Source of the DNA: Eledone cirrhosa
Taxonomy: Eukaryota
DNA: 64,000 bases
NCBI GenBank assembly: GCA_964016885.1
Contig: CAXHJY010001692.1
Coordinates: 124,001 to 188,000 of the forward strand
Reading direction: 5' to 3'
The notes under the pieces were generated by a model. It had not been told where the DNA came from and searched no databases. It saw only the letters and a program-made list of their open reading frames with translations. Shown here piece after piece: positions 8,782 to 35,094 of this stretch. Positions within the stretch are counted from its first letter, which is position 1; every line of letters begins with the position of its first letter. The translations under genes were made by a program, and so were the position numbers.

Positions 8782-8988
8782 TGGTTGCTATTTCTTGGCA
8801 GAAGAGTGCCACCCCTTCATTGAATATTGTACGATCATTTGCAGGCTTTTGTTTTGCAGGCACGTTCACAGATGTGACACTTGAATGGTCTGCCGCCTAG
8901 CAATACCAGCTGGGGAATGTCTCAATTGTCTGCCGCCTAGCAATGCCAACAGGGGGGGGGGGGGTCTGAAGGGCTGCCCCCTAGCAAT
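8782..8988 (-). mobile_element. 3' end of an RTE-type LINE remnant: last zinc finger plus 3' stem-loop
   Basis: Minus strand reads PQLVLLGGRPFKCHICERACKTKA (decayed C2H2 finger), then GTGGCACTC-TTCT-GCCA-AGAA-ATAGCAACCA, which aligns without gaps to the 3' end of the RTE-like repeat at 41169-41777. Confidence 0.7.
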
Positions 8989-11900
8989 ACCAGCTGGGGT
9001 GTGTCTTCATATATTCTAGCACGTCTGGTCAGTCCACCAGCTGGGGCAGGTCTTCATACATTCTACCATGACTGGTCAGCTCACCAGCTGGGGTGTGTCT
9101 TCATATATTCTACCATGACTGGTCAGTCCACCAGCTGGGGTAGGTCTTCATCTATTCTACCATGACTGGTCAGTCCACCAGCTGGGGGAGGTCTTCATAC
9201 ATTCTACCACGTCTGGTCAGTCCACCAGCTGGGGCAGGTCTTCATACATTCTACCACGTCTTGTCAGTCCACCAGCTGGGGTGGGTCTTCATACATTCTA
9301 CAATGACTGGTCAGTCCACCAGCTGGGGCAGGTCTTCATACATTCTACAATGTCTGGTCAGTCCACCAGCTGGGGTAGGTCTTCATACATTCTACCACGT
9401 CTGGTCAGTCTACCAGCTGGGGCAGGTTTTCATACATTCTACCACGTCTGGTCAGTCCACCAGCTGAGGCAGGTCTTCATACATTCTACCACGTCTTGTC
9501 AGTCCACCAGCTGGGGTGGGTCTTCATACATTCTACAATGACTGGTCAGTCCACCAGCTGGGGCAGGTCTTCATACATTCTACAATGACTGGTCAGTCCA
9601 CCAGCTGGGATAGGTCTTCATACATTCTACCATGTCTGGTCAGTCCACCAGCTGGGGCAGGTTTTCATACATTCTACCACGTCTGGTCAGTCCACCAGCT
9701 GGGGCAGGTCTTCATACATTCTACCACGTCTGGTCAGTCCACCAGCTGGAGCAGGTCTTCATACATTCTACCATGTCTGGTCAGTCTACCAGCTGGGGCA
9801 GGTCTTCATACAATATACCACGTCTGGTCAGTCCACAAGCTGGGGTAGGTCTTCATACATTCTACCACGTCTGGTCAGTCCACAAGCTGGGGTAGGTCTT
9901 CATACATTCTACCACGTCTGGTCAGTCCACCAGCTGGGGTAGGTCTTCATACATTCTACCATGTCTGGTCAGTCCACCAGCTGGGGTAGGTCTTCATACA
10001 TTCTATCATGTCTGGTCAGTCCACCATTTGGGGTAGGTCTTCATACATTCTACCATGTCTGGTCAGTCCACCATTTGGGGTAGGTCTTCATACATTCTAA
10101 CATGTCTGGTCAGTCCACCAGCTGGGACAGGTCTTCATACATTCTACCATGTCTGGTCAGTCCACCAGCTGGGGCAGGTCTTCATACATTCTACCATGTC
10201 TGGTCAGTCCACCAGCTGGGGCAGGTCTTCATACATTCTACCATGTCTGGTCAGTCCACCATTTGGGGCAGGTCTTCATACATTCTACCATGTCTGGTCA
10301 GTCCACCAGCTGGGGCAGGTCTTCATACATTCTACCATGTCTGGTCAGTCCACCAGCTGGGGTAGGTCTTCATACATTCTACCATGCCTGGTCAGTCCAC
10401 CATTTGGGGTAGGTCTTCATACATTCTACCATGTCTGGTCAGTCCACCAGCTGGGGTAGGTCTTCATACATTCTACCATGTCTGGTCAGTCCACCATTTG
10501 GGGTAGGTCTTCATACATTCTACCATGTCTGGTCAGTTCACCAGCTGGTGTAGGTCTTCATACATTCTACCATGTCTGGTCAGTCCACCATTTGGGGTAG
10601 GTCTTCATACATTCTACCATGTCTGGTCAGTCCACCAGCTGGGGCAGGTCTTCATACATTCTACCACATCTGGTCAGTCCACCAGCTGGGGTAGGTCTTC
10701 ATACATTCTACCATGTCTGGTCAGTCCACCAGCTGGGGTAGGTCTTCATACATTCTACCATGTCTGGTCAGTCCACCAGCTGGGGTAGGTCTTCATACAT
10801 TCTACCATGTCTGGTCAGTCCACCAGCTGGGGCAGGTCTTCATACATTCTACCACATCTGGTCAGTCCACCAGCTGGGGTAGGTCTTCATACATTCTACC
10901 ATGTCTGGTCAGTCCACCAGCTGGGGTAGGTCTTCATACATTCTACCATGTCTGGTCAGTCCACCATTTGGGGCAGGTCTTCATACATTCTACCATGTCT
11001 GGTCAGTCCACCAGCTGGGGCAGGTCTTCATACATTCTACCATGTCTGGTCAGTCCACCAGCTGGTGTAGGTCTTCATACATTCTACCATGTCTGGTCAG
11101 TCCACCAGCTGGTGTAGGTCTTCATACATTCTACCATGTCTGGTCAGTCCACCATTTGGGGTAGGTCTTCATACATTCTACCATGTCTGGTCAGTCCACC
11201 AGCTGGGGTAGGTCTTCATACATTCTACCATGTCTCGTCAGTCCACCAGCTGGGGTAGGTCTTCATACATTCTACCATGTCTGGTCAGTCCACCATTTGG
11301 GGTAGGTCTTCATACATTCTACCATGTCTGGTCAGTCCACCAGCTGGGGCAGGTCTTCATACATTCTACCACGTCTGGTCAGTCCACCAGCTGGGTTAGG
11401 TCTTCATACATTCTAACATATCTGGTCAGTCCACCAGCTGGGGCAGGTCTTCATACATTCTACCATATCTGGTCAGTCCACCAGCTGGGATAGGTCTTCA
11501 TACATTCTACCATGTCTGGTCAGTCCACCAGCTGGGGCAGGTGTTCATGCATTCTACCATGTCTGGTCAGTCCACCAGCTGGGGCAGGTGTTCATGCATT
11601 CTACCACGTCTGGTCAGTCCACCAGCTGGGGCAGGTCTTCATACACTCTACCAGCTGGGGTAGGTCTTTATACATTCTACCATGTCTGGTCAGTCTACCA
11701 GTTGGGGTAGGTCTTCATACATTCTACCATGTCTGGTCAGTCTACCAGCTGGGGTAGGTCTTCATACATTCTACCATGTCTGGTCAGTCCACCAGCTGGG
11801 GCAGGTCTTCATACATTCTACCATGTCTGGTCAGTCCACCAGCTGGGGCAGGTCTTCATACATTCTACCATGTCTGGTCAGTCCACCATTTGGGGCAGGT

Positions 11901-14900
11901 CTTCATACATTCTACCATGTCTGGTCAGTCCACCAGCTGGGGTAGGTCTTCATACATTCTACCATGCCTGGTCAGTCCACCATTTGGGGTAGGTCTTCAT
12001 ACATTCTACCATGTCTTGTCAGTCCACCATTTGGGGCAGGTCTTCATACATTCTACCATGTCTGGTCAGTTCACCAGCTGGTGTAGGTCTTCATACATTC
12101 TACCATGTCTGGTCAGTCCACCATTTGGGGTAGGTCTTCATACATTCTACCACGTCTTGTCAGTCCACCAGCTGGGGTGGGTCTTCATACATTCTACAAT
12201 GACTGGTCAGTCCACCAGCTGGGGCAGGTCTTCATACATTCTACAATGACTGGTCAGTCCACCAGCTGGGATAGGTCTTCATACATTCTACCATGTCTGG
12301 TCAGTCCACCAGCTGGGGCAGGTTTTCATACATTCTACCACGTCTGGTCAGTCCACCAGCTGGGGCAGGTCTTCATACATTCTACCACGTCTGGTCAGTC
12401 CACCAGCTGGAGCAGGTCTTCATACATTCTACCATGTCTGGTCAGTCTACCAGCTGGGGCAGGTCTTCATACAATATACCACGTCTGGTCAGTCCACAAG
12501 CTGGGGTAGGTCTTCATACATTCTACCACGTCTGGTCAGTCCACCAGCTGGGGTAGGTCTTCATACATTCTACCATGTCTGGTCAGTCCACCAGCTAGGG
12601 TAGGTCTTCATACATTCTACCATGTCTGGTCAGTCCACCATTTGGGATAGGTCTTCATACATTCTACCATGTCTGGTCAGTCCACCAGCTGGGGTAGGTC
12701 TTCATACATTCTACCATGTCTGGTCAGTCCACCATTTGGGGTAGGTCTTCATACATTCTACCATGTCTGGTCAGTCCACCATTTGGGGTAGGTCTTCATA
12801 CATTCTAACATGTCTGGTCAGTCCACCAGCTGGGACAGGTCTTCATACATTCTACCATGTCTGGTCAGTCCACCATTTGGGGCAGGTCTTCATACATTCT
12901 ACCATGTCTGGTCAGTCCACCAGCTGGGGCAGGTCTTCATACATTCTACCATGTCTGGTCAGTCCACCAGCTGGGGTAGGTCTTCATACATTCTACCATG
13001 CCTGGTCAGTCCACCATTTGGGGTAGGTCTTCATACATTCTACCATGTCTGGTCAGTCCACCATTTGGGGCAGGTCTTCATACATTCTACCATGTCTGGT
13101 CAGTTCACCAGCTGGTGTAGGTCTTCATACATTCTACCATGTCTGGTCAGTCCACCATTTGGGGTAGGTCTTCATACATTCTACCATGTCTGGTCAGTCC
13201 ACCAGCTGGGGCAGGTCTTCATACATTCTACCACATCTGGTCAGTCCACCAGCTGGGGTAGGTCTTCATACATTCTACCATGTCTGGTCAGTCCACCATT
13301 TGGGGCAGGTTTTCATACATTCTACCATGTCTGGTCAGTCCACCAGCTGGGGCAGGTCTTCATACATTCTACCATGTCTGGTCAGTCCACCAGCTGGTGT
13401 AGGTCTTCATACATTCTACCATGTCTGGTCAGTCCACCAGCTGGTGTAGGTCTTCATACATTCTACCATGTCTGGTCAGTCCACCATTTGGGGTAGGTCT
13501 TCATACATTCTACCATGTCTGGTCAGTCCACCAGCTGGGGTAGGTCTTCATACATTCTACCATGTCTGGTCAGTCCACCAGCTGGGGTAGGTCTTCATAC
13601 ATTCTACCATGTCTGGTCAGTCCACCATTTGGGGTAGGTCTTCATACATTCTACCATGTCTGGTCAGTCCACCAGCTGGGGCAGGTCTTCATACATTCTA
13701 CCACGTCTGGTCAGTCCACCAGCTGGGTTAGGTCTTCATACTTTCTACCATATCTGGTCAGTCCACCAGCTGGGGCAGGTCTTCATACATTCTACCATAT
13801 CTGGTCAGTCCACCAGCTGGGATAGGTCTTCATACATTCTACCATGTCTGGTCAGTCCACCAGCTGGGGCAGGTGTTCATGCATTCTACCATGTCTGGTC
13901 AGTCCACCAGCTGGGGCAGGTGTTCATGCATTCTACCACGTCTGGTCAGTCCACCAGCTGGGGCAGGTCTTCATACACTCTACCAGCTGGGGTAGGTCTT
14001 TATACATTCTACCATGTCTGGTCAGTCTACCAGTTGGGGTAGGTCTTCATACATTCTACCATGTCTGGTCAGTCTACCAGCTGGGGTAGGTCTTCATACA
14101 TTCTACCATGTCTGGTCAGTCCACCAGCTGGGGCAGGTCTTCATACATTCTACCATGTCTGGTCAGTCCACCAGCTGGGGCAGGTCTTCATACATTCTAC
14201 CATGTCTGGTCAGTCCACCATTTGGGGCAGGTCTTCATACATTCTACCATGTCTGGTCAGTCCACCAGCTGGGGTAGGTCTTCATACATTCTACCATGCC
14301 TGGTCAGTCCACCATTTGGGGTAGGTCTTCATACATTCTACCATGTCTGGTCAGTCCACCATTTGGGGCAGGTCTTCATACATTCTACCATGTCTGGTCA
14401 GTTCACCAGCTGGTGTAGGTCTTCATACATTCTACCATGTCTGGTCAGTCCACCATTTGGGGTAGGTCTTCATACATTCTACCATGTCTGGTCAGTCCAC
14501 CAGCTGGGGCAGGTCTTCATACATTCTACCACATCTGGTCAGTCCACCAGCTGGGGTAGGTCTTCATACATTCTACCATGTCTGGTCAGTCCACCAGCTG
14601 GGGTAGGTCTTCATACATTCTACCATGTCTGGTCAGTCCACCATTTGGGGCAGGTCTTCATACATTCTACCATGTCTGGTCAGTCCACCAGCTGGGGCAG
14701 GTCTTCATACATTCTACCATGTCTGGTCAGTCCACCAGCTGGTGTAGGTCTTCATACATTCTACCATGTCTGGTCAGTCCACCAGCTGGTGTAGGTCTTC
14801 ATACATTCTACCATGTCTGGTCAGTCCACCATTTGGGGTAGGTCTTCATACATTCTACCATGTCTGGTCAGTCCACCAGCTGGGGTAGGTCTTCATACAT

Positions 14901-17900
14901 TCTACCATGTCTGGTCAGTCCACCAGCTGGGGTAGGTCTTCATACATTCTACCATGTCTGGTCAGTCCACCATTTGGGGTAGGTCTTCATACATTCTACC
15001 ATGTCTGGTCAGTCCACCAGCTGGGGCAGGTCTTCATACATTCTACCACGTCTGGTCAGTCCACCAGCTGGGTTAGGTCTTCATACATTCTACCATATCT
15101 GGTCAGTCCACCAGCTGGGGCAGGTCTTCATACATTCTACCATATCTGGTCAGTCCACCAGCTGGGATAGGTCTTCATACATTCTACCATGTCTGGTCAG
15201 TCCACCAGCTGGGGCAGGTGTTCATGCATTCTACCATGTCTGGTCAGTCCACCAGCTGGGGCAGGTGTTCATGCATTCTACCACGTCTGGTCAGTCCACC
15301 AGCTGGGGCAGGTCTTCATACACTCTACCAGCTGGGGTAGGTCTTTATACATTCTACCATGTCTGGTCAGTCTACCAGTTGGGGTAGGTCTTCATACATT
15401 CTACCATGTCTGGTCAGTCTACCAGCTGGGGTAGGTCTTCATACATTCTACCATGTCTGGTCAGTCCACCAGCTGGGGCAGGTCTTCATACATTCTACCA
15501 TGTCTGGTCAGTCCACCAGCTGGGGCAGGTCTTCATACATTCTACCACGTCTGGTCAGTCCACCAGCTGGGGCAGGTCTTCATACATTCTACCACGTCTG
15601 GTCAGTCTACCAGCTGGGGTAGGTCTTCATACATTCTACCATGTCTGGTCAGTCTACCAGCTGGGGTAGGTCTTCATACATTCTACCATGTCTGGTCAGT
15701 CCACCAGCTGGGGTAGGTCTTCATACATTCTACCATGTCTGATCAGTCTACCAGCTGGGGTAGGTCTTCATACATTCTACCACGTCTGGTCAGTCCACCA
15801 GCTGGGGTAGGTCTTCATACATTCTACCATGTCTGGTCAGTCCACCGCTGGGGTAGGTCTTCATACATTCTACCATGTCTGGTCAGTCCACCAGCTGGGG
15901 GTAGGTCTTCATACATTCTACCATGTCTGGTCAGTCCACCAGCTGGGGTAGGTCTTCATACATTCTACCATGTCTGGTCAGTCCACCAGCTGGGGTAGGT
16001 CTTCATACATTCTACCATGTCTGGTCAGTCCACCAGCTGGGGTGGGTATTCATACATTCTACCATGTCTGGTCAGTCCACCACCTGGGGTAGGTCTTCAT
16101 ACATTCTACCATGTCTGGTCAGTCCACCAGCTGGGGCAGGTCTTCATACATTCTACCATATCTGGTCAGTCCACCAGCTGGGATAGGTCTTCATACATTC
16201 TACCATGTCTGGTCAGTCCACCAGCTGGGGCAGGTGTTCATGCATTCTACCATGTCTGGTCAGTCCACCAGCTGGGGCAGGTGTTCATGCATTCTACCAC
16301 GTCTGGTCAGTCCACCAGCTGGGGCAGGTCTTCATACACTCTACCAGTTGGGGTAGGTCTTTATACATTCTACCATGTCTGGTCAGTCTACCAGTTGGGG
16401 TAGGTCTTCATACATTCTACCATGTCTGGTCAGTCTACCAGCTGGGGTAGGTCTTCATACATTCTACCATGTCTGGTCAGTCCACCAGCTGGGGCAGGTC
16501 TTCATACATTCTACCATGTCTGGTCAGTCCACCATTTGGGGTAGGTCTTCATACATTCTACCATGTCTGGTCAGTCCACCATTTGGGGCAGCTCTTCATA
16601 CATTCTACCATGTCTGGTCAGTCCACCAGCTGGGGTAGGTCTTCATACATTCTACCATGCCTGGTCAGTCCACCATTTGGGGCAGGTCTTCATACATTCT
16701 ACCATGTCTGGTCAGTCCACCATTTGGGGCAGCTCTTCATACATTCTACCATGTCTGGTCAGTCCACCAGCTGGGGTAGGTCTTCATACATTCTACCATG
16801 CCTGGTCAGTCCACCATTTGGGGCAGGTCTTCATACATTCTACCATGTCTGGTCAGTCCACCATTTGGGGTAGGTCTTCATATATTCTACCATGTCTGGT
16901 CAGTCCACCATTTGGGGCAGCTCTTCATACATTCTACCATGTCTGGTCAGTCCACCAGCTGGGGTAGGTCTTCATACATTCTACCATGCCTGGTCAGTCC
17001 ACCATTTGGGGCAGGTCTTCATACATTCTACCATGTCTGGTCAGTTCACCAGCTGGTGTAGGTCTTCATACATTCTACCATGTCTGGTCAGTCCACCATT
17101 TGGGGTAGGTCTTCATACATTCTACCATGTCTGGTCAGTCCACCAGCTGGGGCAGGTCTTCATACATTCTACCACATCTGGTCAGTCCACCAGCTGGGGT
17201 AGGTCTTCATACATTCTACCATGTCTGGTCAGTCCACCAGCTGGGATAGGTCTTCATACATTCTACCATGTCTGGTCAGTCCACCAGCTGGAGTAGGTCT
17301 TCATACATTCTCCCATGTCTGGTCAGTCCACCATTTGGGGTAGGTCTTCATACATTCTACCATGTCTGGTCAGTCCACCATTTGGGGTAGGTCTTCATAC
17401 ATTCTAACATGTCTGGTCAGTCCACCAGCTGGGATAGGTCTTCATACATTCTACCATGTCTGGTCAGTCCACCATTTGGGGCAGGTCTTCATACATTCTA
17501 CCATGTCTGGTCAGTCCACCAGCTGGGGCAGGTCTTCATACATTCTACCATGTCTGGTCAGTCCACCAGCTGGGGTAGGTCTTCATACATTCTACCATGC
17601 CTGGTCAGTCCACCATTTGGGGTAGGTCTTCATACATTCTACCATGTCTGGTCAGTCCACCATTTGGGGCAGGTCTTCATACATTCTACCATGTCTGGTC
17701 AGTTCACCAGCTGGTGTAGGTCTTCATACATTCTACCATGTCTGGTCAGTCCACCATTTGGGGTAGGTCTTCATACATTCTACCATGTCTGGTCAGTCCA
17801 CCAGCTGGGGCAGGTCTTCATACATTCTACCACATCTGGTCAGTCCACCAGCTGGGGTAGGTCTTCATACATTCTACCATGTCTGGTCAGTCCACCAGCT

Positions 17901-20900
17901 GGGGTAGGTCTTCATACATTCTACCATGTCTGGTCAGTCCACCATTTGGGGCAGGTCTTCATACATTCTACCATGTCTGGTCAGTCCACCAGCTGGGGCA
18001 GGTCTTCATACATTCTACCATGTCTGGTCAGTCCACCAGCTGGTGTAGGTCTTCATACATTCTACCATGTCTGGTCAGTCCACCATTTGGGGTAGGTCTT
18101 CATACATTCTACCATGTCTGGTCAGTCCACCAGCTGGGGCAGGTCTTCATACATTCTACCATGTCTGGTCAGTCCAGCAGCTGGGGTAGGTCTTCATACA
18201 TTCTACCATGTCTGGTCAGTCCACCAGCTGGGGTAGGTCTTCATACAATATACCACGTCTGGTCAGTCCACAAGCTGGGGTAGGTCTTCATACATTCTAC
18301 CACGTCTGGTCAGTCCACCAGCTGGGGTAGGTCTTCATACATTCTACCATGTCTGGTCAGTCCACCAGCTAGGGTAGGTCTTCATACATTCTACCATGTC
18401 TGGTCAGTCCACCATTTGGGGTAGGTCTTCATACATTCTACCATGTCTGGTCAGTCCACCATTTGGGATAGGTCTTCATACATTCTACCATGTCTGGTCA
18501 GTCCACCAGCTGGGGTAGGTCTTCATACATTCTACCATGTCTGGTCAGTCCACCATTTGGGGTAGGTCTTCATACATTCTACCATGTCTGGTCAGTCCAC
18601 CATTTGGGGTAGGTCTTCATACATTCTAACATGTCTGGTCAGTCCACCAGCTGGGACAGGTCTTCATACATTCTACCATGTCTGGTCAGTCCACCATTTG
18701 GGGCAGGTCTTCATACATTCTACCATGTCTGGTCAGTCCACCAGCTGGGGCAGGTCTTCATACATTCTACCATGTCTGGTCAGTCCACCAGCTGGGGTAG
18801 GTCTTCATACATTCTACCATGCCTGGTCAGTCCACCATTTGGGGTAGGTCTTCATACATTCAACCATGTCTGGTCAGTCCACCATTTGGGGCAGGTCTTC
18901 ATACATTCTACCATGTCTGGTCAGTTCACCAGCTGGTGTAGGTCTTCGTACATTCTACCATGTCTGGTCAGTCCACCATTTGGGGTAGGTCTTCATACAT
19001 TCTACCATGTCTGGTCAGTCCACCAGCTGGGGCAGGTCTTCATACATTCTACCACATCTGGTCAGTCCACCAGCTGGGGTAGGTCTTCATACATTCTACC
19101 ATGTCTGGTCAGTCCACCAGCTGGGGTAGGCCTTCATACATTCTACCATGTCTGGTCAGTCCACCATTTGGGGCAGGTCTTCATACATTCTACCATGTCT
19201 GGTCAGTCCACCAGCTGGGGCAGGTCTTCATACATTCTACCATGTCTGGTCAGTCCACCAGCTGGTGTAGGTCTTCATACATTCTACCATGTCTGGTCAG
19301 TCCACCAGCTGGTGTAGGTCTTCATATATTCTACCATGTCTGGTCAGTCCACCATTTGGGGTAGGTCTTCATACATTCTACCATGTCTGGTCAGTCCACC
19401 AGCTGGGGTAGGTCTTCATACATTCTACCATGTCTGGTCAGTCCACCAGCTGGGGTAGGTCTTCATACATTCTACCATGTCTGGTCAGTCCACCATTTGG
19501 GGTAGGTCTTCATACATTCTACCATGTCTGGTCAGTCCACCAGCTGGGGCAGGTCTTCATACATTCTACCATGTCTGGTCAGTCCACCAGCTGGGTTAGG
19601 TCTTCATACATTCTACCATATCTGGTCAGTCCACCAGCTGGGGCAGGTCTTCATACATTCTACCATATCTGGTCAGTCCACCAGCTGGGATAGGTCTTCA
19701 TACATTCTACCATGTCTGGTCAGTCCACCAGCTGGGGCAGGTGTTCATGCATTCTACCATGTCTGGTCAGTCCACCAGCTGGGGCAGGTGTTCATGCATT
19801 CTACCACGTCTGGTTAGTCCACCAGCTGGGGCAGGTCTTCATACACTCTACCAGCTGGGGTAGGTCTTTATACATTCTACCATGTCTGGTCAGTCTACCA
19901 GTTGGGGTAGGTCTTCATACATTCTACCATGTCTGGTCAGTCTACCAGCTGGGGTAGGTCTTCATACATTCTACCATGTCTGGTCAGTCCACCAGCTGGG
20001 GCAGGTCTTCATACATTCTACCATGTCTGGTCAGTCCACCAGCTGGGGCAGGTCTTCATACATTCTACCACGTCTGGTCAGTCCACCAGCTGGGGCAGGT
20101 CTTCATACATTCTACCACGTCTGGTCAGTCCACCAGCTGGGGCAGGTCTTCATACATTCTACCACGTCTGGTCAGTCTACCAGCTGGTGTAGGTCTTCAT
20201 ACATTCTACCATGTCTGGTCAGTCCACCAGCTGGGGCAGGTCTTCGTACATTCTACCACGACTGGTCAGTCCACCAGCTGGGGCAGGTCTTCATACATTC
20301 TACCACGTCTGGTCAGTCTACCAGCTGGGGTAGGTCTTCATACATTCTACCATGTCTGGTCAGTCTACCAGCTGGGGTAGGTCTTCATACATTCTACCAT
20401 GTCTGGTCAGTCCACCAGCTGGGGTAGGTCTTCATACATTCTACCATGTCTGATCAGTCTACCAGCTGGGGTAGGTCTTCATACATTCTACCATGTCTGG
20501 TCAGTCCACCAGCTGGGGTAGGTCTTCATACATTCTACCATGTCTGGTCAGTCCACCGCTGGGGTAGGTCTTCATACATTCTACCATGTCTGGTCAGTCC
20601 ACCAGCTGGGGGTAGGTCTTCATACATTCTACCATGTCTGGTCAGTCCACCAGCTGGGGTAGGTCTTCATACATTCTACCATGTCTGGTCAGTCCACCAG
20701 CTGGGGTAGGTCTTCATACATTCTACCATGTCTGGTCAGTCTACCAGCTGGGGTAGGTCTTCATACATTCTACCATGTCTGGTCAGTCCACCAGCTGGGA
20801 TAGGTCTTCATACATTCTACCATGTCTGGTCAGTCCACCAGCTGGGTCAGGTCTTCATACATTCTACCACGTCTGGTCAGTCCACCAGCTGGGGCAGGTA

Positions 20901-23900
20901 TTCACACATTCTACCATGTCTGGTCAGTCCACCAGCTGGGGCAGGTCTTCATACATTATACCACGTCTGGTCAGTCCACCAGCTGGGGCAGGTATTCACA
21001 CATTCTACCATGTCTGGTCAGTCTACCAGCTGGGGTAGGTCTTCATACATTCTACCATGTCTGGTCAGTCCACCAGCTGGGGTAGGTCTTCATACATTCT
21101 ACCATGTCTGGTCAGTCCACCAGCTGGGGTGGGTATTCATACATTCTACCATGTCTGGTCAGTCCACCACCTGGGGTAGGTCTTCATACATTCTACCATG
21201 TCTGGTCAGTCCACCAGCTGGGGGTAGGTCTTCATACATTCTACCACGTCTGGTCAGTCCACCAGCTGGGGTAGGTCTTCATACATTCTACCATGTCTGG
21301 TCAGTCCACCAGCTGGGGTAGGTCTTCATACATTCTACCATGTCTGGTCAGTCCACCAGCTGGGGTGGGTATTCATACATTCTACCATGTCTGGTCAGTC
21401 CACGAGCTGGGGCAGGTCTTCATACATTCTACCATGTCTGGTCAGTCCACCAGCTGGAGTAGGTCTTCATACATTCTACCATGTCTGGTCAGTCCACCAT
21501 TTGGGGTAGGTCTTCATACATTCTACCATGTCTGGTCAGTCCACCATTTGGGGTAGGTCTTCATACATTCTAACATGTCTGGTCAGTCCACCAGCTGGGA
21601 TAGGTCTTCATACATTCTACCATGTCTGGTCAGTCCACCATTTGGGGCAGGTCTTCATACATTCTACCATGTCTGGTCAGTCCACCAGCTGGGGCAGGTC
21701 TTCATACATTCTACCATGTCTGGTCAGTCCACCAGCTGGGGTAGGTCTTCATACATTCTACCATGCCTGGTCAGTCCACCATTTGGGGTAGGTCTTCATA
21801 CATTCTACCATGTCTGGTCAGTCCACCATTTGGGGCAGGTCTTCATACATTCTACCATGTCTGGTCAGTTCACCAGCTGGTGTAGGTCTTCATACATTCT
21901 ACCATGTCTGGTCAGTCCACCATTTTGGGTAGGTCTTCATACATTCTACCATGTCTGGTCAGTCCACCAGCTGGGGCAGGTCTTCATACATTCTACCACA
22001 TCTGTTCAGTCCACCAGCTGGGGTAGGTCTTCATACATTCTACCATGTCTGGTCAGTCCACCAGCTGGGGTAGGTCTTCATACATTCTACCATGTCTGGT
22101 CAGTCCACCATTTGGGGCAGGTCTTCATACATTCTACCATGTCTGGTCAGTCCACCAGCTGGGGCAGGTCTTCATACATTCTACCATGTCTGGTCAGTCC
22201 ACCAGCTGGTGTAGGTCTTCATACATTCTACCATGTCTGGTCAGTCCACCAGCTGGTGTAGGTCTTCATACATTCTACCATGTCTGGTCAGTCCACCATT
22301 TGGGGTAGGTCTTCATACATTCTACCATGTCTGGTCAGTCCACCAGCTGGGGCAGGTCTTCATACATTCTACCATGTCTGGTCAGTCCACCAGCTGGGGT
22401 AGGTCTTCATACATTCTACCATGTCTGGTCAGTCCACCAGCTGGGGTAGGTCTTCATACATTCTACCATGTCTGGTCAGTCCACCATTTGGGGTAGGTCT
22501 TCATACATTCTACCATGTCTGGTCAGTCCACCAGCTGGGGCAGGTCTTCATACATTCTACCATGTCTGGTCAGTCCACCAGCTGGGTTAGGTCTTCATAC
22601 ATTCTACCATATCTGGTCAGTCCACCAGCTGGGGCAGGTCTTCATACATTCTACCATATCTGGTCAGTCCACCAGCTGGGATAGGTCTTCATACATTCTA
22701 CCATGTCTGGTCAGTCCACCAGCTGGGGCAGGTGTTCATGCATTCTACCATGTCTGGTCAGTCCACCAGCTGGGGCAGGTGTTCATGCATTCTACCACAT
22801 CTGGTCAGTCCACCAGCTGGGGCAGGTCTTCATACACTCTACCAGCTGGGGTAGGTCTTTATACATTCTACCATGTCTGGTCAGTCTACCAGTTGGGGTA
22901 GGTCTTCATACATTCTACCATGTCTGGTCAGTCTACCAGCTGGGGTAGGTCTTCATACATTCTACCATGTCTGGTCAGTCCACCAGCTGGGGCAGGTCTT
23001 CATACATTCTACCATGTCTGGTCAGTCCACCAGCTGGGGCAGGTCTTCATACATTCTACCACGTCTGGTCAGTCCACCAGCTGGGGCAGGTCTTCATACA
23101 TTCTACCACGTCTGGTCAGTCCACCAGCTGGGGCAGGTCTTCATACATTCTACCACGTCTGGTCAGTCTACCAGCTGGGGTAGGTCTTCATACATTCTAC
23201 CATGTCTGGTCAGTCCACCAGCTGGGGCAGGTCTTCATACATTCTACCACGACTGGTCAGTCCACCAGCTGGGGCAGGTCTTCATACATTCTACCACGTC
23301 TGGTCAGTCTACCAGATGGGGTAGGTCTTCATACATTCTACCATGTCTGGTCAGTCTACCAGCTGGGGTAGGTCTTCATACATTCTACCATGTCTGGTCA
23401 GTCCACCAGCTGGGGTAGGTCTTCATACATTCTACAATGTCTGGTCAGTCTACCAGCTGGGGTAGGTCTTCATACATTCTACCATGTCTGGTCAGTCCAC
23501 CAGCTGGGGTAGGTCTTCATACATTCTACCATGTCTGGTCAGTCCACCAGCTGGGGTAGGTCTTCATACATTCTACCATGTCTGGTCAGTCCACCAGCTG
23601 GGGGTAGGTCTTCATACATTCTACCATGTCTGGTCAGTCCACCAGCTGGGGTAGGTCTTCATACATTCTACCATGTCTGGTCAGTCCACCAGCTGGGGTA
23701 GGTCTTCATACATTCTACCATGTCTGGTCAGTCTACCAGCTGGGGTAGGTCTTCATACATTCTACCATGTCTGGTCAGTCCACCAGCTGGGATAGGTCTT
23801 CATACATTCTACCATGTCTGGTCAGTCCACCAGCTGGGGCAGGTATTCACACATTCTACCATGTCTGGTCAGTCCACCAGCTGGGGCAGGTCTTCATACA

Positions 23901-26900
23901 TTCTACCACGTCTGGTCAGTCCACCAACTGGGGCAGGTATTCACACATTCTACCATGTCTGGTCAGTCCACCAGCTGGGATAGGTCTTCATACATTCTAC
24001 CATGTCTGGTCAGTCCACCAGCTGGGGCAGGTGTTCATGCATTCTACCATGTCTGGTCAGTCCACCAGCTGGGGCAGGTGTTCATGCATTCTACCACGTC
24101 TGGTTAGTCCACCAGCTGGGGCAGGTCTTCATACACTCTACCAGCTGGGGTAGGTCTTTATACATTCTACCATGTCTGGTCAGTCTACCAGTTGGGGTAG
24201 GTCTTCATACATTCTACCATGTCTGGTCAGTCTACCAGCTGGGGTAGGTCTTCATACATTCTACCATGTCTGGTCAGTCCACCAGCTGGGGCAGGTCTTC
24301 ATACATTCTACCATGTCTGGTCAGTCCACCAGCTGGGGCAGGTCTTCATACATTCTACCACGTCTGGTCAGTCCACCAGCTGGGGCAGGTCTTCATACAT
24401 TCTACCACGTCTGGTCAGTCCACCAGCTGGGGCAGGTCTTCATACATTCTACCACGTCTGGTCAGTCTACCAGCTGGTGTAGGTCTTCATACATTCTACC
24501 ATGTCTGGTCAGTCCACCAGCTGGGGCAGGTCTTCGTACATTCTACCACGACTGGTCAGTCCACCAGCTGGGGCAGGTCTTCATACATTCTACCACGTCT
24601 GGTCAGTCTACCAGCTGGGGTAGGTCTTCATACATTCTACCATGTCTGGTCAGTCTACCAGCTGGGGTAGGTCTTCATACATTCTACCATGTCTGGTCAG
24701 TCCACCAGCTGGGGTAGGTCTTCATACATTCTACCATGTCTGATCAGTCTACCAGCTGGGGTAGGTCTTCATACATTCTACCATGTCTGGTCAGTCCACC
24801 AGCTGGGGTAGGTCTTCATACATTCTACCATGTCTGGTCAGTCCACCGCTGGGGTAGGTCTTCATACATTCTACCATGTCTGGTCAGTCCACCAGCTGGG
24901 GGTAGGTCTTCATACATTCTACCATGTCTGGTCAGTCCACCAGCTGGGGTAGGTCTTCATACATTCTACCATGTCTGGTCAGTCCACCAGCTGGGGTAGG
25001 TCTTCATACATTCTACCATGTCTGGTCAGTCTACCAGCTGGGGTAGGTCTTCATACATTCTACCATGTCTGGTCAGTCCACCAGCTGGGATAGGTCTTCA
25101 TACATTCTACCATGTCTGGTCAGTCCACCAGCTGGGTCAGGTCTTCATACATTCTACCACGTCTGGTCAGTCCACCAGCTGGGGCAGGTATTCACACATT
25201 CTACCATGTCTGGTCAGTCCACCAGCTGGGGCAGGTCTTCATACATTATACCACGTCTGGTCAGTCCACCAGCTGGGGCAGGTATTCACACATTCTACCA
25301 TGTCTGGTCAGTCTACCAGCTGGGGTAGGTCTTCATACATTCTACCATGTCTGGTCAGTCCACCAGCTGGGGTAGGTCTTCATACATTCTACCATGTCTG
25401 GTCAGTCCACCAGCTGGGGTGGGTATTCATACATTCTACCATGTCTGGTCAGTCCACCACCTGGGGTAGGTGTTCATACATTCTACCATGTCTGGTCAGT
25501 CCACCAGCTGGGGGTAGGTCTTCATACATTCTACCACGTCGGGTCAGTCCACCAGCTGGGGTAGGTCTTCATACATTCTACCATGTCTGGTCAGTCCACC
25601 AGCTGGGGTAGGTCTTCATACATTCTACCATGTCTGGTCAGTCCACCAGCTGGGGTGGGTATTCATACATTCTACCATGTCTGGTCAGTCCACGAGCTGG
25701 GGCAGGTCTTCATACATTCTACCATGTCTGGTCAGTCCACCAGCTGGAGTAGGTCTTCATACATTCTACCATGTCTGGTCAGTCCACCATTTGGGGTAGG
25801 TCTTCATACATTCTACCATGTCTGGTCAGTCCACCATTTGGGGTAGGTCTTCATACATTCTAACATGTCTGGTCAGTCCACCAGCTGGGATAGGTCTTCA
25901 TACATTCTACCATGTCTGGTCAGTCCACCATTTGGGGCAGGTCTTCATACATTCTACCATGTCTGGTCAGTCCACCAGCTGGGGCAGGTCTTCATACATT
26001 CTACCATGTCTGGTCAGTCCACCAGCTGGGGTAGGTCTTCATACATTCTACCATGCCTGGTCAGTCCACCATTTGGGGTAGGTCTTCATACATTCTACCA
26101 TGTCTGGTCAGTCCACCATTTGGGGCAGGTCTTCATACATTCTACCATGTCTGGTCAGTTCACCAGCTGGTGTAGGTCTTCATACATTCTACCATGTCTG
26201 GTCAGTCCACCATTTTGGGTAGGTCTTCATACATTCTACCATGTCTGGTCAGTCCACCAGCTGGGGCAGGTCTTCATACATTCTACCACATCTGTTCAGT
26301 CCACCAGCTGGGGTAGGTCTTCATACATTCTACCATGTCTGGTCAGTCCACCAGCTGGGGTAGGTCTTCATACATTCTACCATGTCTGGTCAGTCCACCA
26401 TTTGGGGCAGGTCTTCATACATTCTACCATGTCTGGTCAGTCCACCAGCTGGGGCAGGTCTTCATACATTCTACCATGTCTGGTCAGTCCACCAGCTGGT
26501 GTAGGTCTTCATACATTCTACCATGTCTGGTCAGTCCACCAGCTGGTGTAGGTCTTCATACATTCTACCATGTCTGGTCAGTCCACCATTTGGGGTAGGT
26601 CTTCATACATTCTACCATGTCTGGTCAGTCCACCAGCTGGGGCAGGTCTTCATACATTCTACCATGTCTGGTCAGTCCACCAGCTGGGGTAGGTCTTCAT
26701 ACATTCTACCATGTCTGGTCAGTCCACCAGCTGGGGTAGGTCTTCATACATTCTACCATGTCTGGTCAGTCCACCATTTGGGGTAGGTCTTCATACATTC
26801 TACCATGTCTGGTCAGTCCACCAGCTGGGGCAGGTCTTCATACATTCTACCATGTCTGGTCAGTCCACCAGCTGGGTTAGGTCTTCATACATTCTACCAT

Positions 26901-29900
26901 ATCTGGTCAGTCCACCAGCTGGGGCAGGTCTTCATACATTCTACCATATCTGGTCAGTCCACCAGCTGGGATAGGTCTTCATACATTCTACCATGTCTGG
27001 TCAGTCCACCAGCTGGGGCAGGTGTTCATGCATTCTACCATGTCTGGTCAGTCCACCAGCTGGGGCAGGTGTTCATGCATTCTACCACATCTGGTCAGTC
27101 CACCAGCTGGGGCAGGTCTTCATACACTCTACCAGCTGGGGTAGGTCTTTATACATTCTACCATGTCTGGTCAGTCTACCAGTTGGGGTAGGTCTTCATA
27201 CATTCTACCATGTCTGGTCAGTCTACCAGCTGGGGTAGGTCTTCATACATTCTACCATGTCTGGTCAGTCCACCAGCTGGGGCAGGTCTTCATACATTCT
27301 ACCATGTCTGGTCAGTCCACCAGCTGGGGCAGGTCTTCATACATTCTACCACGTCTGGTCAGTCCACCAGCTGGGGCAGGTCTTCATACATTCTACCACG
27401 TCTGGTCAGTCCACCAGCTGGGGCAGGTCTTCATACATTCTACCACGTCTGGTCAGTCTACCAGCTGGGGTAGGTCTTCATACATTCTACCATGTCTGGT
27501 CAGTCCACCAGCTGGGGCAGGTCTTCATACATTCTACCACGACTGGTCAGTCCACCAGCTGGGGCAGGTCTTCATACATTCTACCACGTCTGGTCAGTCT
27601 ACCAGATGGGGTAGGTCTTCATACATTCTACCATGTCTGGTCAGTCTACCAGCTGGGGTAGGTCTTCATACATTCTACCATGTCTGGTCAGTCCACCAGC
27701 TGGGGTAGGTCTTCATACATTCTACAATGTCTGGTCAGTCTACCAGCTGGGGTAGGTCTTCATACATTCTACCATGTCTGGTCAGTCCACCAGCTGGGGT
27801 AGGTCTTCATACATTCTACCATGTCTGGTCAGTCCACCAGCTGGGGTAGGTCTTCATACATTCTACCATGTCTGGTCAGTCCACCAGCTGGGGGTAGGTC
27901 TTCATACATTCTACCATGTCTGGTCAGTCCACCAGCTGGGGTAGGTCTTCATACATTCTACCATGTCTGGTCAGTCCACCAGCTGGGGTAGGTCTTCATA
28001 CATTCTACCATGTCTGGTCAGTCTACCAGCTGGGGTAGGTCTTCATACATTCTACCATGTCTGGTCAGTCCACCAGCTGGGATAGGTCTTCATACATTCT
28101 ACCATGTCTGGTCAGTCCACCAGCTGGGGCAGGTATTCACACATTCTACCATGTCTGGTCAGTCCACCAGCTGGGGCAGGTCTTCATACATTCTACCACG
28201 TCTGGTCAGTCCACCAACTGGGGCAGGTATTCACACATTCTACCATGTCTGGTCAGTCCACCAGCTGGGGTAGGTCTTCATACATTCTACCATGTCTGGT
28301 CAGTCCACCAGCTGGGGTAGGTCTTCATACATTCTACCATCTCTGGTCAGTCCACCAGCTGGGGTGGGTATTCATACATTCTACCATGTCTGGTCAGTCC
28401 ACCACCTGGGGTAGGTCTTCATACATTCTACCATGTCTGGTCAGTCCACCAGCTGGGGGTACGTCTTCATACATTCTACCACGTCTGGTCAGTCCACCAG
28501 CTGGGGTAGGTCTTCATACATTCTACCATGTCTGGTCAGTCTACCAGCTGGGGTAGGTCTTCATACATTCTACCATGTCTGGTCAGTCCACCAGCTGGGG
28601 TGGGTATTCATACATTCTACCATGTCTGGTCAGTCCACGAGCTGGGGCAGGTCTTCATACATTCTACCATGTCTGGTCAGTCCACCAGCTGGAGTAGGTC
28701 TTCATACATTCTACCATGTCTGGTCAGTCCACCAGCTGGGGTAGGTCTTCATACATTCTACCATGTCTGGTCAGTCCACCAGCTGGGGGTAGGTCTTCAT
28801 ACATTCTACCACGTCTGGTCAGTCCACCAGCTGGGGTAGGTCTTCATACATTCTACGATGTCTGGTCAGTCCACCAGCTGGGGTAGGTCTTCATACATTC
28901 TACCATGTCTGGTCAGTCTACCAGCTGGGGTAGGTCTTCATACATTCTACCATGTCTGGTCAGTCCACCAGCTGGGGTGGGTCTTCATACATTCTACCAT
29001 GTCTGGTCAGTCCACCAGCTGGGGTAGGTCTTCATACATTCTACCATGTCTGGTCAGTCCACCAACTGGGGTAGGTCTTCATACATTCTACCATGTCTGG
29101 TCAGTCCACCAGCTGGGGCAGGTCTTCATACATTCTACCATGTCTGGTCAGTCTACCAGCTGGGGTAGGTCTTCATACATTCGACCATGTCTGGTCAGTC
29201 CACCAGCTGGGATAGGTCTTCATACATTCTACCATGTCTGGTCAGTCCACCAGCTGGGGTAGGTCTTCATACATTCTACCATGTCTGGTCAGTCCACCAG
29301 CTGGGGCAGGTCTTCATACATTCTACCATGTCTGGTCAGTCTACCAGCTGGGGTAGGTCTTCATACATTCGACCATGTCTGGTCAGTCCACCAGCTGGGA
29401 TAGGTCTTCATACATTCTACCATGTCTGGTCAGTCCACCAGCTGGGGTAGGTCTTCATACATTCTACCATGTCTGGTCAGTCCACCAGCTGGGGAAGGTC
29501 TTCATACATTTTACCATGTCTGGTCAGTCTACCAGCTGGGGTAGGTCTTCATACATTCTACCATGTCTGGTCAGTCCACCAGCTGGGATAGGTCTTCATA
29601 CATTCTACCATGTCTGGTCAGTCCACCAGCTGGGGTAGGTCTTCATACATTCTAGCATGTCTGGTCAGTCCACCATTGGGGTAGGTCTTCATACATTCTC
29701 CCATATCTGGTCAGTCCACCAGCTGGGGGAGGTCTTCATACATTCTACCACGTCTGGTCAGTCCACTAGCTGGGGTAGGTCTTCATACATTCGACCATGT
29801 CTGGTCAGTCCACCAGCTGGGATAGGTCTTCATACATTCTACCATGTCTGGTCAGTCCACCAGCTGGGGCAGGTCTTCATACATTCTACCACGTCTGGTC

Positions 29901-32900
29901 AGTCCACCAGCTGGGGTAGGTCTTCATACATTCTACCATGTCTGGTCAGTCCACCATTGGGGTAGGTCTTCATACATTCTACCATATCTGGTCAGTCCAC
30001 CAGCTGGGGGAGGTCTTCATACATTCTACCACGTCTGGTCAGTCCACCAGCTGGGGTAGGTCTTCATACATTCGACCATGTCTGGTCAGTCTACCAGCTG
30101 GGGTAGGTCTTCATACATTCGACCATGTCTGGTCAGTCCACCAGCTGGGGTAGGTCTTCATACATTCTACCATGTCTGGTCAGTCCACCATTGGGGTAGG
30201 TCTTCATACATTCTACCATGTCTGGTCAGTCTACCAGCTGGGGTAGGTCTTCATACATTCTACCATGTCTGGTCAGTCCACCAGCTGGGGCAGGTCTTCA
30301 TACATTCTACCACGTCTGGTCAGTCCACCAGCTGGGGTAGGTCTTCATACATTCTACCATGTGTGGCCAGTCCACCAGCTTGGGCAGGTCTTCATACATT
30401 CTACCATGTGTGGTCAGTCCACCAGCTGGGGTAGGTCTTCATACATTCTACCACGTCTGGTCAGTCCACCAGCTGGGGTAGGTCTTCATACATTCTACCA
30501 TGTCTGGTCAGTCCACCAGCTGGGGCAGGTCTTCATACATTCTACCACGTCTGGTCAGTCCACCAGCTGGGGTAGGTCTTCATACATTCTACCATGTCTG
30601 GTCAGTCCACCAGCTGGGGCAGGTCTTCATCTATTCTACCATGACTGGTCAATTCACCAGCTGGGGCAGGTCTTCATACATTCTACCATGTCTGGTCAGT
30701 CTACCAGCTGGGGTAGGTCTTCATACATTCTACCATGTCTGGTCAGTCCACCAGCTGGGGCAGGTCTTCATACATTCTACCATGTCTGGTCAGTCCACCA
30801 GCTGGGGTAGGTCTTCATACATTCTACCATGTCTGGTCAGTCCACCAGCTGGGGCAGGTCTTCATACATTCTACCATGTCTGGTCAGTCCACCAGCTGGG
30901 GCAGGTCTTCATACATTCTACCATGTCTGGTCAGTCCACCAGCTGGGGCAGGTCTTCATACATTCTACCATGTCTGGTCAGTCCACCAGCTGTGGCAGGT
31001 CTTCATCTATTCTACCATGACTGGTCAGTCCACCAGCGGGGGTGGGTCTTCATACATTCTACCATGTCTGGTCAGTCCACCAGCTGGGGCAGGTCTTCAT
31101 ACATTCTACCATGTCTGGTCAGTCCACCAGTGGGGTAGTCTTTATACATTCTACCATGTCTGGTCAGCCTACCACTGGGGTGGGTCTTCATACATTCTAC
31201 CATGTCTGGTCAGTCTACCAGCTGGGGTAGGTCTTCATACATTCTACCATGTCTGGTCAGTCTAGCAGCTGGGGTAGGTCTTCATACATTCTACCATGTC
31301 TGGTCAGTCTACCAGCTGGGGTAGGTCTTCATACATTCTACCATGTCTGGTCATTCTACCAGCTGGGGTAGGTCTTCATACATTCTACCATGTCTGGTCA
31401 GTCTACCAGCTGGGGTAGGTCTTCATACATTCTACCATGTCTGGTCAGTCTACCTGCTGGGGTAGGTCTTCATACATTCTACCATGTCTGGTCAGTCTAC
31501 CAGCTGGGGTAGGTCTTCATACATTCTACCATGTCTGGTCAGTCTACCAGCTGGGGTAGGTCTTCATACATTCTACCATGTCTGGTCAATCTACCAGCTG
31601 GGATAGGTCTTCATACATTCTACCATGTCTGGTCAGTCTACCAGCTGGGGTAGGTCTTCATACATTCTTCCATCTCTGGTCAGTCTACCAGCTGGGGTAG
31701 GTCTTCATACATTCTACCATGTCTGGTCAGTCTACCAGCTGGGGTAGGTCTTCATACATTCTACCATGTCTGGTCAGTCTACCAGCTGGGGTAGGTCTTC
31801 ATACATTCTACCATGTCTGGTCAGTCTACCAGCTGGGGTAGGTCTTCATACATTCTACCATGTCTGGTCAGTCTACCAGCTGGGGTAGGTCTTCATACAT
31901 TCTACCATGTCTGGTCAGTCTACCAGCTGGGGTAGGTCTTCATACATTCTACCATGTCTGGTCAGTCTACCAGCTGGGGTAGGTCTTCATACATTCTACC
32001 ATGTCTGGTCAGTCTACCAGCTGGGATAGGTCTTCATACATTCTACCATGTCTGGTCAGTCTACCAGCTGGGGTAGGTCTTCATACATTCTACCATGTCT
32101 GGTCAGTCCACCAGCTGGGGTAGGTCTTCATACATTCTACCATGTCTTGTCAGTCCACCAGCTGGGGTGGGTCTTCATACATTCTACCATGTCTGGTCAG
32201 TCCACCAGCTGGGGTAGGTCTTCATACATTCTACCATGTCTGGTCAGTCCACCATTTGGGGTAGGTCTTCATACATTCTACCATATCTGGTCAGTCCACC
32301 AGCTGGGGTAGGTCTTCATACATTCTACCATGTCTGGTCAGTCCACCAGCTGGGGCAGGTCTTCATACATTCTACCATGTGTGGCCAGTCCACCAGCTTG
32401 GGTGGGTCTTCATACATTCTACCATGTCTGGTCAGTCCACCAGCTGGGGTAGGTCTTCATACATTCTACCATGTGTGGCCAGTCCACCAGCTGGGGTGGG
32501 TCTTCATACATTCTACCATGTGTGGTCAGTCTACCAGCTGGGTTTGGTCTTTATACATTCTACCATGTCTGGTCAGTCCACCAGCTGGGGTAGGTCTTCA
32601 TACATTCTACCTTGTCTGGTCAGTCCACCAGCTGGGGTAGGTCTTCATCTATTCTTCCATGTCTGGTCAGTCCACCAGCTGGGGCAGGTCTTCATACATT
32701 CTACCACGTCTGGTCAGTCCACCAGCTGGGGCAGGTCTTCATCTATTCTACCATGACTGGTCAGTTCACCAGCTGGGGCAGGTCTTCATACATTCTACCA
32801 TGTCTGGTCAGTCCACCAGCTGGAGTAGGTCTTCATACATTCTACAATGTCTGGTCAGTCCACCAGCTGGGGTGGGTCTTCATACATTCTACCATGTCTG

Positions 32901-34846
32901 GTCAGTTCACCAGCTGGGGTAGGTCTTCATACATTCTACCATGTCTGGTCAGTCCACCATTTGGGGTAGGTCTTCATCTATTCTACCATGACTGGTCAGT
33001 TCACCAACTGGGGCAGGTCTTCATACATTCTACCATGTCTGGTCAGTCCACCAGCTGGAGTAGGTCTTCATACATTCTACCATGTCTGGTCAGTCCACCA
33101 GCTGGGGTGGGTCTTCATACATTCTACCATGTCTGGTCAGTCCACCAGCTGGGGTAGGTCTTCATACATTCTACCATGTCTGGTCAGTCCACCAGCTGGG
33201 GCAGGTCTTCATACATTCTACCATGTGTGGCCAGTCCACCAGCTTGGGTGGGTCTTCATACATTCTACCATGTCTGGTCAGTCCACCAGCTGGGGTAGGT
33301 CTTCATACATTCTACCATGTCTGGTCAGTCCACCAGCTGGGGTAGGTCTTCATACATTCTACCATGTCTGGTCAGTCCACCAGCTGGGTTTGGTCTTTAT
33401 ACATTCTACCATGTCTGGTCAGTCCACCAGCTGGGGCAGGTCTTCATCTATTCTTCCATGTCTGGTCAGTCCACCAGCTGGGGTGGGTCTTCATACATTC
33501 TACCACGTCTGGTCAGTCTACCAGCTGGGTTTGGTCTTTATACATTCTACCATGTCTGGTCAGTCCACCAGCTGGGGCAGGTCTTCATACATTCTACCAT
33601 GTCTGGTCAGTCCACCACTGGGGTGGGTCTTCATACATTCTACCATGTCTGGTCAGTCCACCAGCTGGGGTAGGTCTTCATACATTCTACCATGTCTGGT
33701 CAGTCCACCAGCTGGGGCAGGTCTTCATCTATTCTTCCATGTCTGGTCAGTCCACCAGCTGGGGTGGGTCTTCATACATTCTACCATGTCTGGTCAGTCC
33801 ACCAGCTGGGGCAGGTCTTCATACATTCTACCTTGTCTGGTCAGTCCACCATTTGGGATAGGTCTTCATACATTCTACCATGTCTGGTCAGTCCACCAGC
33901 TGGGGTAGGTCTTCATACATTCTACCATGTCTGGTCAGTCCACCATTTGGGGTAGGTCTTCATACATTCTACCATGTCTGGTCAGTCCACCATTTGGGGT
34001 AGGTCTTCATACATTCTAACATGTCTGGTCAGTCCACCATTTGGGGCAGGTCTTCATACATTCTACCATGTCTGGTCAGTCCACCAGCTGGGGTAGGTCT
34101 TCATACATTCTACCATGTCTGGTCAGTCCACCAGCTGGGACAGGTCTTCATACATTCTACCATGTCTGGTCAGTCCACCATTTGGGGCAGGTCTTCATAC
34201 ATTCTACCATGTCTGGTCAGTCCACCAGCTGGTGTAGGTCTTCATACATTCTACCATGTCTGGTCAGTCCACCAGCTGGGGTAGGTCTTCATACATTCTA
34301 CCACGTCTGGTCAGTCCACCAGCTGGGGCAGGTCTTCATACATTCTACCATGTCTGGTCAGTCCACCAGCTGGGGTGGGTCTTCATACATTCTACCACGT
34401 CTGGTCAGTCCACCAGCTGGGGCAGGTCTTCATACATTCTACCATGTCTGGTCAGTCCACCAGCTGGGGCAGGTCTTCATACATTCTACCATGTCTGGTC
34501 AGTCCACCAGCTGGGGCAGGTCTTCATACATTCTACCTTGTCTGGTCAGTCCACCAGCTGGAGCAGGTCTTCATACATTCTACCATGTCTGGTCAGTCCA
34601 CCAGCTGGGGTAGGTCTTCATACATTCTACCATGTCTGGTCAGTCTACCAGCTGGGTTAGGTCTTCATACATTCTACCATGTCTGGTCAGTCCACCAGCT
34701 GGGGTAGGTCTTCATACATTCTACCATGTCTGGTCAGTCCACCAGCTGGGGCAGGTCTTCATACATTCTACCATGTCTGGTCAGTCCACCAGCTGGGGTA
34801 GGTCTTCATACATTCTACCATGTCTGGTCAGTCCACCAGCTGGGGT
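8989..34846 (+). repeat. 47-bp satellite (ATGTCTGGTCAGTCCACCAGCTGGGGYAGGTCTTCATACATTCTACC)n, ~550 copies, with higher-order duplications
   Basis: Continuous 47-bp periodicity over ~25.9 kb. Diagnostic variants recur at multi-kb spacings. Confidence 0.99.
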
Positions 34847-35092
34847 ACAAATTAAGCCACACTCACTGCAAATATACCGTAGAGTGTGACAATGGAACCG
34901 TCTCACGGTTGGCTTGATACCTCCCTGGCTCGTGTAATTTCAGATGGTTGACAAATACAGCCCTTGTTCGAAGATACATTACCACATATATTGCACCTCA
35001 ATTCCTGCAGGATTTTTACATGTACTCCACTTGAGTTACGCTTACGAAGTGAACGGTTCAAAACAGCATCATATGTTCTACTCGCATATACT
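34847..35092 (-). mobile_element. Upstream part of the same RTE-type LINE remnant (two frameshifted C2H2 fingers), 5'-truncated
   Basis: Minus strand: YDAVLNRSLRKR...ELRCNICGNVSSNK/AVFVNHLKLH...then, after another frameshift, ICSECGLICTPAGGLTRHGRMY, whose second half is the first satellite unit. Confidence 0.75.
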
Positions 35093-35094
35093 GG

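Follow-up and report, generated by a model that had tools for sequence, protein, structure and literature searches.

Minisatellites born between direct repeats of 5-10 bp inside retroposons were described by Haber and Louis (1998), and an Alu case by Jurka and Gentles (2006), both as summarised in PMC6947457 and PMC3389668. Here, we describe a tandem array of 47-bp units, about 26 kb long, within a long interspersed nuclear element (LINE) of Eledone cirrhosa. The window, to which all positions refer, is the whole 64,000-nt stretch analysed, 124001-188000 of contig CAXHJY010001692.1 (C1719) in assembly GCA_964016885.1. As in the summarised cases, the unit lies between short near-repeats of a retroposon without long terminal repeats (a non-LTR retroposon) and was duplicated, then locally amplified, but here the near-repeat is an imperfect 8-mer, one state of which is palindromic, the unit consists of coding sequence, and the array extends to 26 kb.

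Tandem-repeat hotspots, where one region of an element is repeated at many loci, are reported for AluS and LTR12, and for LTR12 the authors suggest a repeat already present in the source and spread by transposition (PMC3389668). A source-borne repeat is also the model favoured for the 47-bp unit; those elements are a human short interspersed nuclear element (SINE) and an LTR, whereas here ordered diagnostic letters in a LINE open reading frame (ORF) would trace an ancestor with two units. In Lathyrus sativus, Ogre-derived satellites, and in pea, PisTR-A, are short retrotransposon-borne arrays that expanded greatly at few loci in a region-dependent manner (PMC7004042). Short arrays in dispersed elements and large expansion at few loci are common to both systems. 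Those arrays are, in contrast, in the 3′ untranslated region of most copies of LTR elements, while about 1-2% of the LINE copies here carry the duplication, which frameshifts the ORF. Monomers of LINE or retrotransposon sequence, ORF2 included, are also known from PROsat, Pvc20 (L1 ORF2), the common cetacean satellite (L1 3′ end), and chicken HinfI (CR1) (PMC9659126), as well as from maize CRM1TR and CRM4TR (PMC3648361). As listed in these sources, the evidence for them is similarity of the monomer, or the monomers are long, whereas for the 47-bp array the parent insertion, both flanks, the target-site duplication, and smaller sister arrays are in view. Finally, RTE-2_OV, an octopus RTE LINE, has a single ORF of about 1,100 amino acids (aa) with endonuclease, reverse transcriptase (RT), and C2H2 fingers (PMC9115989), the layout of a protein discussed below (P0002, 1,091 aa); the two were compared by layout only.

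Short-repeat minisatellites, element hotspots, source-borne arrays, and LINE ORF2-derived satellites are already in print in these sources, and an origin of satellites from transposable elements is established; the array is a clear case of a known route, not a new mechanism. Searches of open-access literature listed no paper on it or on cephalopod LINE-derived arrays. The word "satellite" is absent from passages of the octopus repeat papers PMC12988792 and PMC13282606, as are words of the LINE family from supplementary files 1-4 of PMC9115989.

The array and its parent LINE copy

The array is a repeated zinc-finger piece of an old, dead, 5′-truncated LINE, and on balance it probably grew from a two-unit duplication carried in by the source element; the starting duplication likely arrived with the element, because the same piece is repeated in six other LINE copies. 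No function is implied for the array. It occupies 8989-34846 on the minus strand (25.9 kb, about 549 units), and Tandem Repeats Finder reports a period of 47, 549 copies, and 90% matches at 8989-34845, which confirms the roughly 550 copies and 26 kb given in the initial annotation. Our own cutting gave 544 intervals, 518 of them of 47 bp, falling into 131 types with eight 76-bp variants and a mean pairwise difference of 6.2%. The unit encodes the helix half of finger 2, with both His positions, and the start of the linker; it had previously been placed between fingers 2 and 3. The translations quoted in that annotation for the unit and both flanks are present on the minus strand.

The LINE copy, on the same strand, spans 8779-35087 between the two copies of an 11-bp target-site duplication with one mismatch, at 8768-8778 by the 3′ end and 35088-35098 by the truncated 5′ end, which had been missed earlier. 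Because the copy lies between these target sites, about 0.4 kb of LINE has grown roughly 60-fold. Its 5′ part (34847-35087) contains finger 1, the spacer, and the first half of finger 2 (zf-C2H2, E 0.0057), with two frameshifts. The array's 5′ boundary follows at 34835-34846, and at its other end, at 8989-9130, lie the 3′-terminal units. Beyond them, an 84-bp secondary duplication of the downstream boundary, absent from family copies, occupies 8905-8988 and includes a G12 run; it consists of two extra part-copies of the boundary, with ATTGCTAGG at 8896, 8936, and 8980 and the boundary word at 8902 and 8986. The 3′ end (8779-8904), 69-87% identical to dispersed copies, holds the remaining linker, a broken finger 3, and a short tail. 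About 20 bp are deleted from finger 3 near 8845 and its His pair is gone; the missing letters are seen in loose read ends at 8845. With the two frameshifts, this deletion, and a 17% difference from the column majority, the copy is dead.

Collapsing the array to one unit had been said to give a continuous ICSEC...FKCHICE frame. This is so once the 84 bp at 8905-8988 are removed as well, and fails while they are kept. A 3′ stem-loop proposed at the same time found no support, either in folding (z +0.38) or in a consensus fold across 56 tails.

The LINE family

As had been proposed, the two flanks are parts of a single LINE family, and its ORF has three C2H2 fingers at the end. The right flank matched 39 scored places at 78-82%, among 477 candidates, and in all 20 fetched loci that match it, one unit is followed immediately by a match to the left flank. 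The order in dispersed copies is right flank, one unit, left flank, so the single monomer sits between both flanks as predicted, and the flanks do not come from unrelated families. Finger 3 could be aligned in 57 of 61 non-redundant single-unit copies, 40-81 bp from the anchor and never further; it lies at 79-81 bp, the one-unit spacing, in 39 of these 57, and closer through deletions in the other 18. Deletions within the 47-bp segment itself were seen in six single-unit copies (L095, L102, L103, L004, L100, and L133), three of them between microhomologies of 3-4 bp.

The upstream extent of 26 family copies ranges from 250 bp to more than 3 kb, with a common 3′ end. The long copy at C6 is decayed and retains RT remnants (RVT_1, E 1.2e-5, below the curated cut-off) that are 67% identical to P0002, an intact relative with Exo_endo_phos, RVT_1, and zf-C2H2 domains. 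This endonuclease-RT-C2H2 layout is common to P0002, P0006, and P0012. Moreover, the three fingers of copy L005 are 52% identical to P0002 over 107 aa (zf-C2H2, E 2.7e-8). A protein search with the finger region alone scored none of 48 candidates. The family thus has the upstream RT, the variable 5′ truncation with a common 3′ end, and the target-site duplication of a LINE with apurinic endonuclease and RT. The domain layout, the likeness to RTE-2_OV, and motifs of RTE type suggest an RTE label. Family size is at least 320 copies, a pattern-based estimate from a biased sample, with 477-602 candidates. ATGT comes next after the LINE 3′ end, and many copies lie within TG/TA-type simple repeats (ends of L001, L007, L010, and L014), a context that suggests a target preference.

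Unit boundaries and the 12-bp repeat

A 12-bp direct repeat does bound the array in the window: ACCCCAGCTGGT occurs there in 193 exact copies, the first at 8989 and the last at 34835. The initial annotation took it for the pre-existing seed, and the dispersed copies do not bear this out. At both boundaries, 47 of the 61 single-unit copies could be aligned (14 could not), and none has the 12-mer at both unit ends; their two boundary 12-mers agree at 4-9 of 12 letters. The 5′ boundary word starts with AAGT in 36 of the 47, where the window has ACCC. Even a perfect 8-mer at both ends was found in none of the 47: the boundary words share only CAGC(T/G)GGT and CAGC(C/T)GGT, the commonest states matching at 6-7 of 8 letters in CAGC.GGT. 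A nine-unit array at another LINE copy, C22, keeps the parental words at both ends (5′, AAGT; 3′, CAGCCG). Given these parental words and the absence from single-unit copies, the 12-mer most likely stems from the array, whose sequence replaced the 5′ boundary. A perfect repeat at array ends can thus be a product of homogenisation, and seeds deduced from array ends without paralogues may mislead.

Sister loci and the origin of the duplication

The array is not specific to this locus, a point on which the earlier annotation had advised a check: the 47-bp unit is duplicated in identical register at six other LINE copies (C6, C22, C10, C4, C5, and C1695). The junction pattern occurs at 548 places genome-wide, 508 in the window, 17 at C6, 13 at C10, 8 at C22, and one each at C4 and C5. 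C1695 was added by a DNA search in which 39 of 118 candidates were scored, and more diverged dimers may be missed. C6 has 18 units, 16 of them identical; C10 has about 11, plus 43 shorter ones, and runs into an assembly gap; C4, C5, and C1695 have two each. With at least 320 copies estimated and 477-602 candidates, duplicated units are carried by the 1-2% of copies mentioned above. At C10 (L027:3187-4890, C10:40064187-40065890), units of 47/48 bp give way to deletion derivatives of about 27 bp, which continue into the gap. C6 (L024:4650-5510, C6:101154650-101155510) is a near full-length, decayed LINE copy, and its identical internal units reflect very recent expansion or homogenisation inside an old insertion.

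That the array came into the LINE from elsewhere, or that its length is largely an assembly artefact, is very improbable. The contig is an unplaced 213 kb, a near-perfect internal block of 4,290 bp could have been duplicated by the assembly, the array is spanned by no read, and read depth is nil at 8908-8965, so that the 84-bp duplication is unverified in the reads. The unit, however, belongs to the LINE itself and keeps its register with the two flanks. All 548 junction matches are accounted for (508 in the window, 40 at five LINE loci), and no larger donor array is therefore assembled. Furthermore, the left flank occurs once in the assembly and agrees without a difference over 606 bp with a read run, and summed unit depth is 7,000-16,000 times that of the flank, or at least about 230-520 after a rough division by the overlap of 31-letter words; the runs used are probably from the source sample. 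Segmental duplication of array-bearing loci was likewise rejected: C6, C22, and the window copy are separate insertions, with different 5′ ends and flanks and bodies 20-30% apart.

Shared letters within the unit argue for a common start. C43-T44 is found at the junctions of the window, C6, C22, and C5, in none of 59 single-unit copies, and, outside the array, in none of 17 matches of terminal type (the ordinary terminal form has 167 matches). A33, present in one of the 59, is carried by every unit of C6 and by the 3′ unit of the window, C22, and C5. T21, also in one of 59, is common to C6 and 16 window units, and G28, in none, to the first units of C22 and C5. Reading 5′ to 3′, a unit A (C43-T44) precedes a unit B (A33, A43-C44) at the window, C22, and C5, while C6 is an A/B recombinant; the units at 8989-9130 retain the B-type letters and, by comparison with the other loci, would descend from an ancestral dimer. 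Taken together, the letters at the four loci point to one ancestral A-B dimer. A first duplication at the window locus itself, as initially assumed, is not supported, since four loci share these rare letters.

An independent history, in which a single-unit copy was inserted and duplicated de novo between the near-repeats, the shared letters at other loci being parallel changes, is improbable. C4, C10, and C1695 have private junction letters, and their duplications look independent of that in the window; the register would thus have undergone three or more further duplications of independent origin. In one natural copy, the unit window ranks within the top 2% of 60-mers for folding stability, and the site looks like a hotspot, because 52,968 other LINE bases hold only five short (11-17 bp) tandem pairs, none recurrent. 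Against parallel change stand the identical two-letter change at four loci, the ordered positions of A33, T21, and G28, and the absence of the 12-bp repeat from all 47 copies. Selection for a hairpin was considered as a cause of C43-T44 and rejected: the fold pairs these letters with GGTAG, but the change does not stabilise it (change in folding energy +0.2 kcal/mol), so that such selection does not explain convergence; 52% of 6,669 double changes do as well.

Upstream of the unit, rare alleles shared between LINE bodies place window-C6 at the 98th, C6-C22 at the 99th, and window-C22 at the 89th percentile of 1,953 pairs. The bodies lend modest support to a common source for the window, C6, and C22, and none for C5.

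Several observations weigh against a retrotransposed dimer. The C5 body groups with another subfamily (L070, L106, and L012) and has no excess of alleles in common with the window (12th percentile; C5 pairs, 12th-59th), and C5 must be a mosaic, because the shared junction sits on another subfamily's body. The trees are stars in which no supported branch unites the array-bearing copies; the array label needs 7 changes against 6.6 when shuffled, which makes them uninformative. Left out were L064 and L065 (misanchored), L077 (no hit), and duplicates, and the comparison of unit letters with its tree, which also dropped rows below 215 bp, kept 62 of 68 rows. On the 3′ side, the window, C6, and C22 have unlike flanks (GGTATTGC, AGTTTTAC, and GATATTAC), at letters that vary among copies. 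An intact plain A-B dimer with both flanks was not found. The assembly has no second allele of the locus and no second individual was seen; two restriction-site-associated DNA (RAD) runs from other individuals contain reads of the family, not the flank of the window locus. The folding of three units gives a z of -3.96, inflated because shuffles destroy the repeated palindrome, and folding energy does not measure slippage.

Ectopic conversion is possible, though unlikely: the junction would have arisen once and been copied to paralogous single-unit LINEs by conversion or repair, or through an excised circle, and then expanded in place. C5 fits this: the other subfamily's alleles run to a point 28 bp short of the unit, the shared junction comes next, and the LINE 3′ tail is lacking as after an aborted repair, although a template switch in reverse transcription would also explain it. 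Of the alleles that C6, C22, and the window have in common, several are no more than 61 bp from the unit, and star trees are compatible with conversion; others, however, lie 154-218 bp upstream. The paralogues are also about 20% apart, a divergence that hinders conversion unless it took place early. If true, conversion that carried the junction from one subfamily to another would be a way for satellites to spread that is little documented. The wider notion that the satellite seed homes among LINE paralogues by conversion across subfamilies and chromosomes, recipients growing to 2-550 units by locus, is doubtful.

We lean, therefore, towards retrotransposition of a dimer source, ahead of conversion and of independent origins. 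Slippage or repair between the near-repeats CAGC(T/G)GGT and CAGC(C/T)GGT, 47 bp apart, would have made the first duplication, and a source with unit A followed by unit B would have been retrotransposed to the window locus, C6, and C22.

Growth of the array

Growth in place is nearly certain under all three models of origin, because dispersed copies run from the right flank through one unit to the left flank and the window copy lies between target-site duplications. The in-situ slippage or unequal exchange initially put forward stands in this respect, and fails in the seeding by 12-mers and in placing the first duplication here. A 4,290-bp tandem block duplication of 90 units, 88 of them identical, is found at 19689-28268 (minus strand, ends approximate), with smaller nested repeats at offsets of 1345, 2332, 2991, 3301, and 3677 bp. 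The long head-to-tail array with these higher-order blocks is a satellite, and the blocks reflect the copying of several units at a time, in part recently, or are partly an assembly effect.

Under the favoured dimer model, once two units were present each would have a copy of the palindrome CCAGCTGG on either side; pairing of these copies is predicted to extrude exactly one unit and so to favour further slips. One unit between junction copies folds at -11.1 kcal/mol, against -5.9 ± 1.75 in the 61 single-unit copies. The palindrome forms the junction at six of the seven loci, and the locus without it stayed a dimer; the association with size is weak, because two loci with it also stayed dimers. 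Unequal exchange or repair copying of multi-unit blocks would then have led to 26 kb, homogenisation overwriting the 5′ boundary and creating the 12-bp repeat. Final size may have been set by the locus. With one 47-bp seed at seven mapped insertion sites and 2 to about 549 units, the family offers a natural experiment on whether locus or sequence sets array size.

Contig context and neighbouring arrays

The 213-kb contig, unplaced in a 3.0-Gb assembly, was surveyed through loci L143-L156, L022, L023, and the window. Tandem arrays with a period of 10 or more make up 72% of it (77, 89, 17, 106, 27, 14, 47, 79, and 27 bp), and it looks like an expansion-prone locus. No TTAGGG runs were found on it. 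Further minisatellites in the window have units of 14, 51, 79, 27, and 55 bp (6177-6980, 37958-38337, 51611-52257, 52418-54069, and 56462-56848, respectively), and a comparison with about 0.4 Mb of fetched loci yielded no match to a unit together with its flank. The 77-, 89-, 17-, and 139-bp arrays of the contig each have such a match elsewhere.

The largest neighbour, at window 1-5855 (C1719:39292-129855), is a 90.6-kb array of 3,353 units of 27 bp. A dispersed repeat that is very common (2,278 candidates) matches the last unit together with the right flank; the right flank is intact, and about 15 bp of the repeat head are visible at the left end. Three of 39 other scored copies of the repeat extend over two or more units, and arrays of the unit occur at two other copies (L140 and L142). 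By these matches the array grew out of the head of this SINE-like repeat, which by its motifs we take to be the head of a tRNA-derived SINE. In-place birth with a preserved flank thus occurs twice within 3 kb, since this array also keeps the flank of its parent repeat. A satellite birthplace, described at first as rarely visible, is thus in view at six other loci of the LINE and, 3 kb away, in a 90-kb array from another dispersed repeat.

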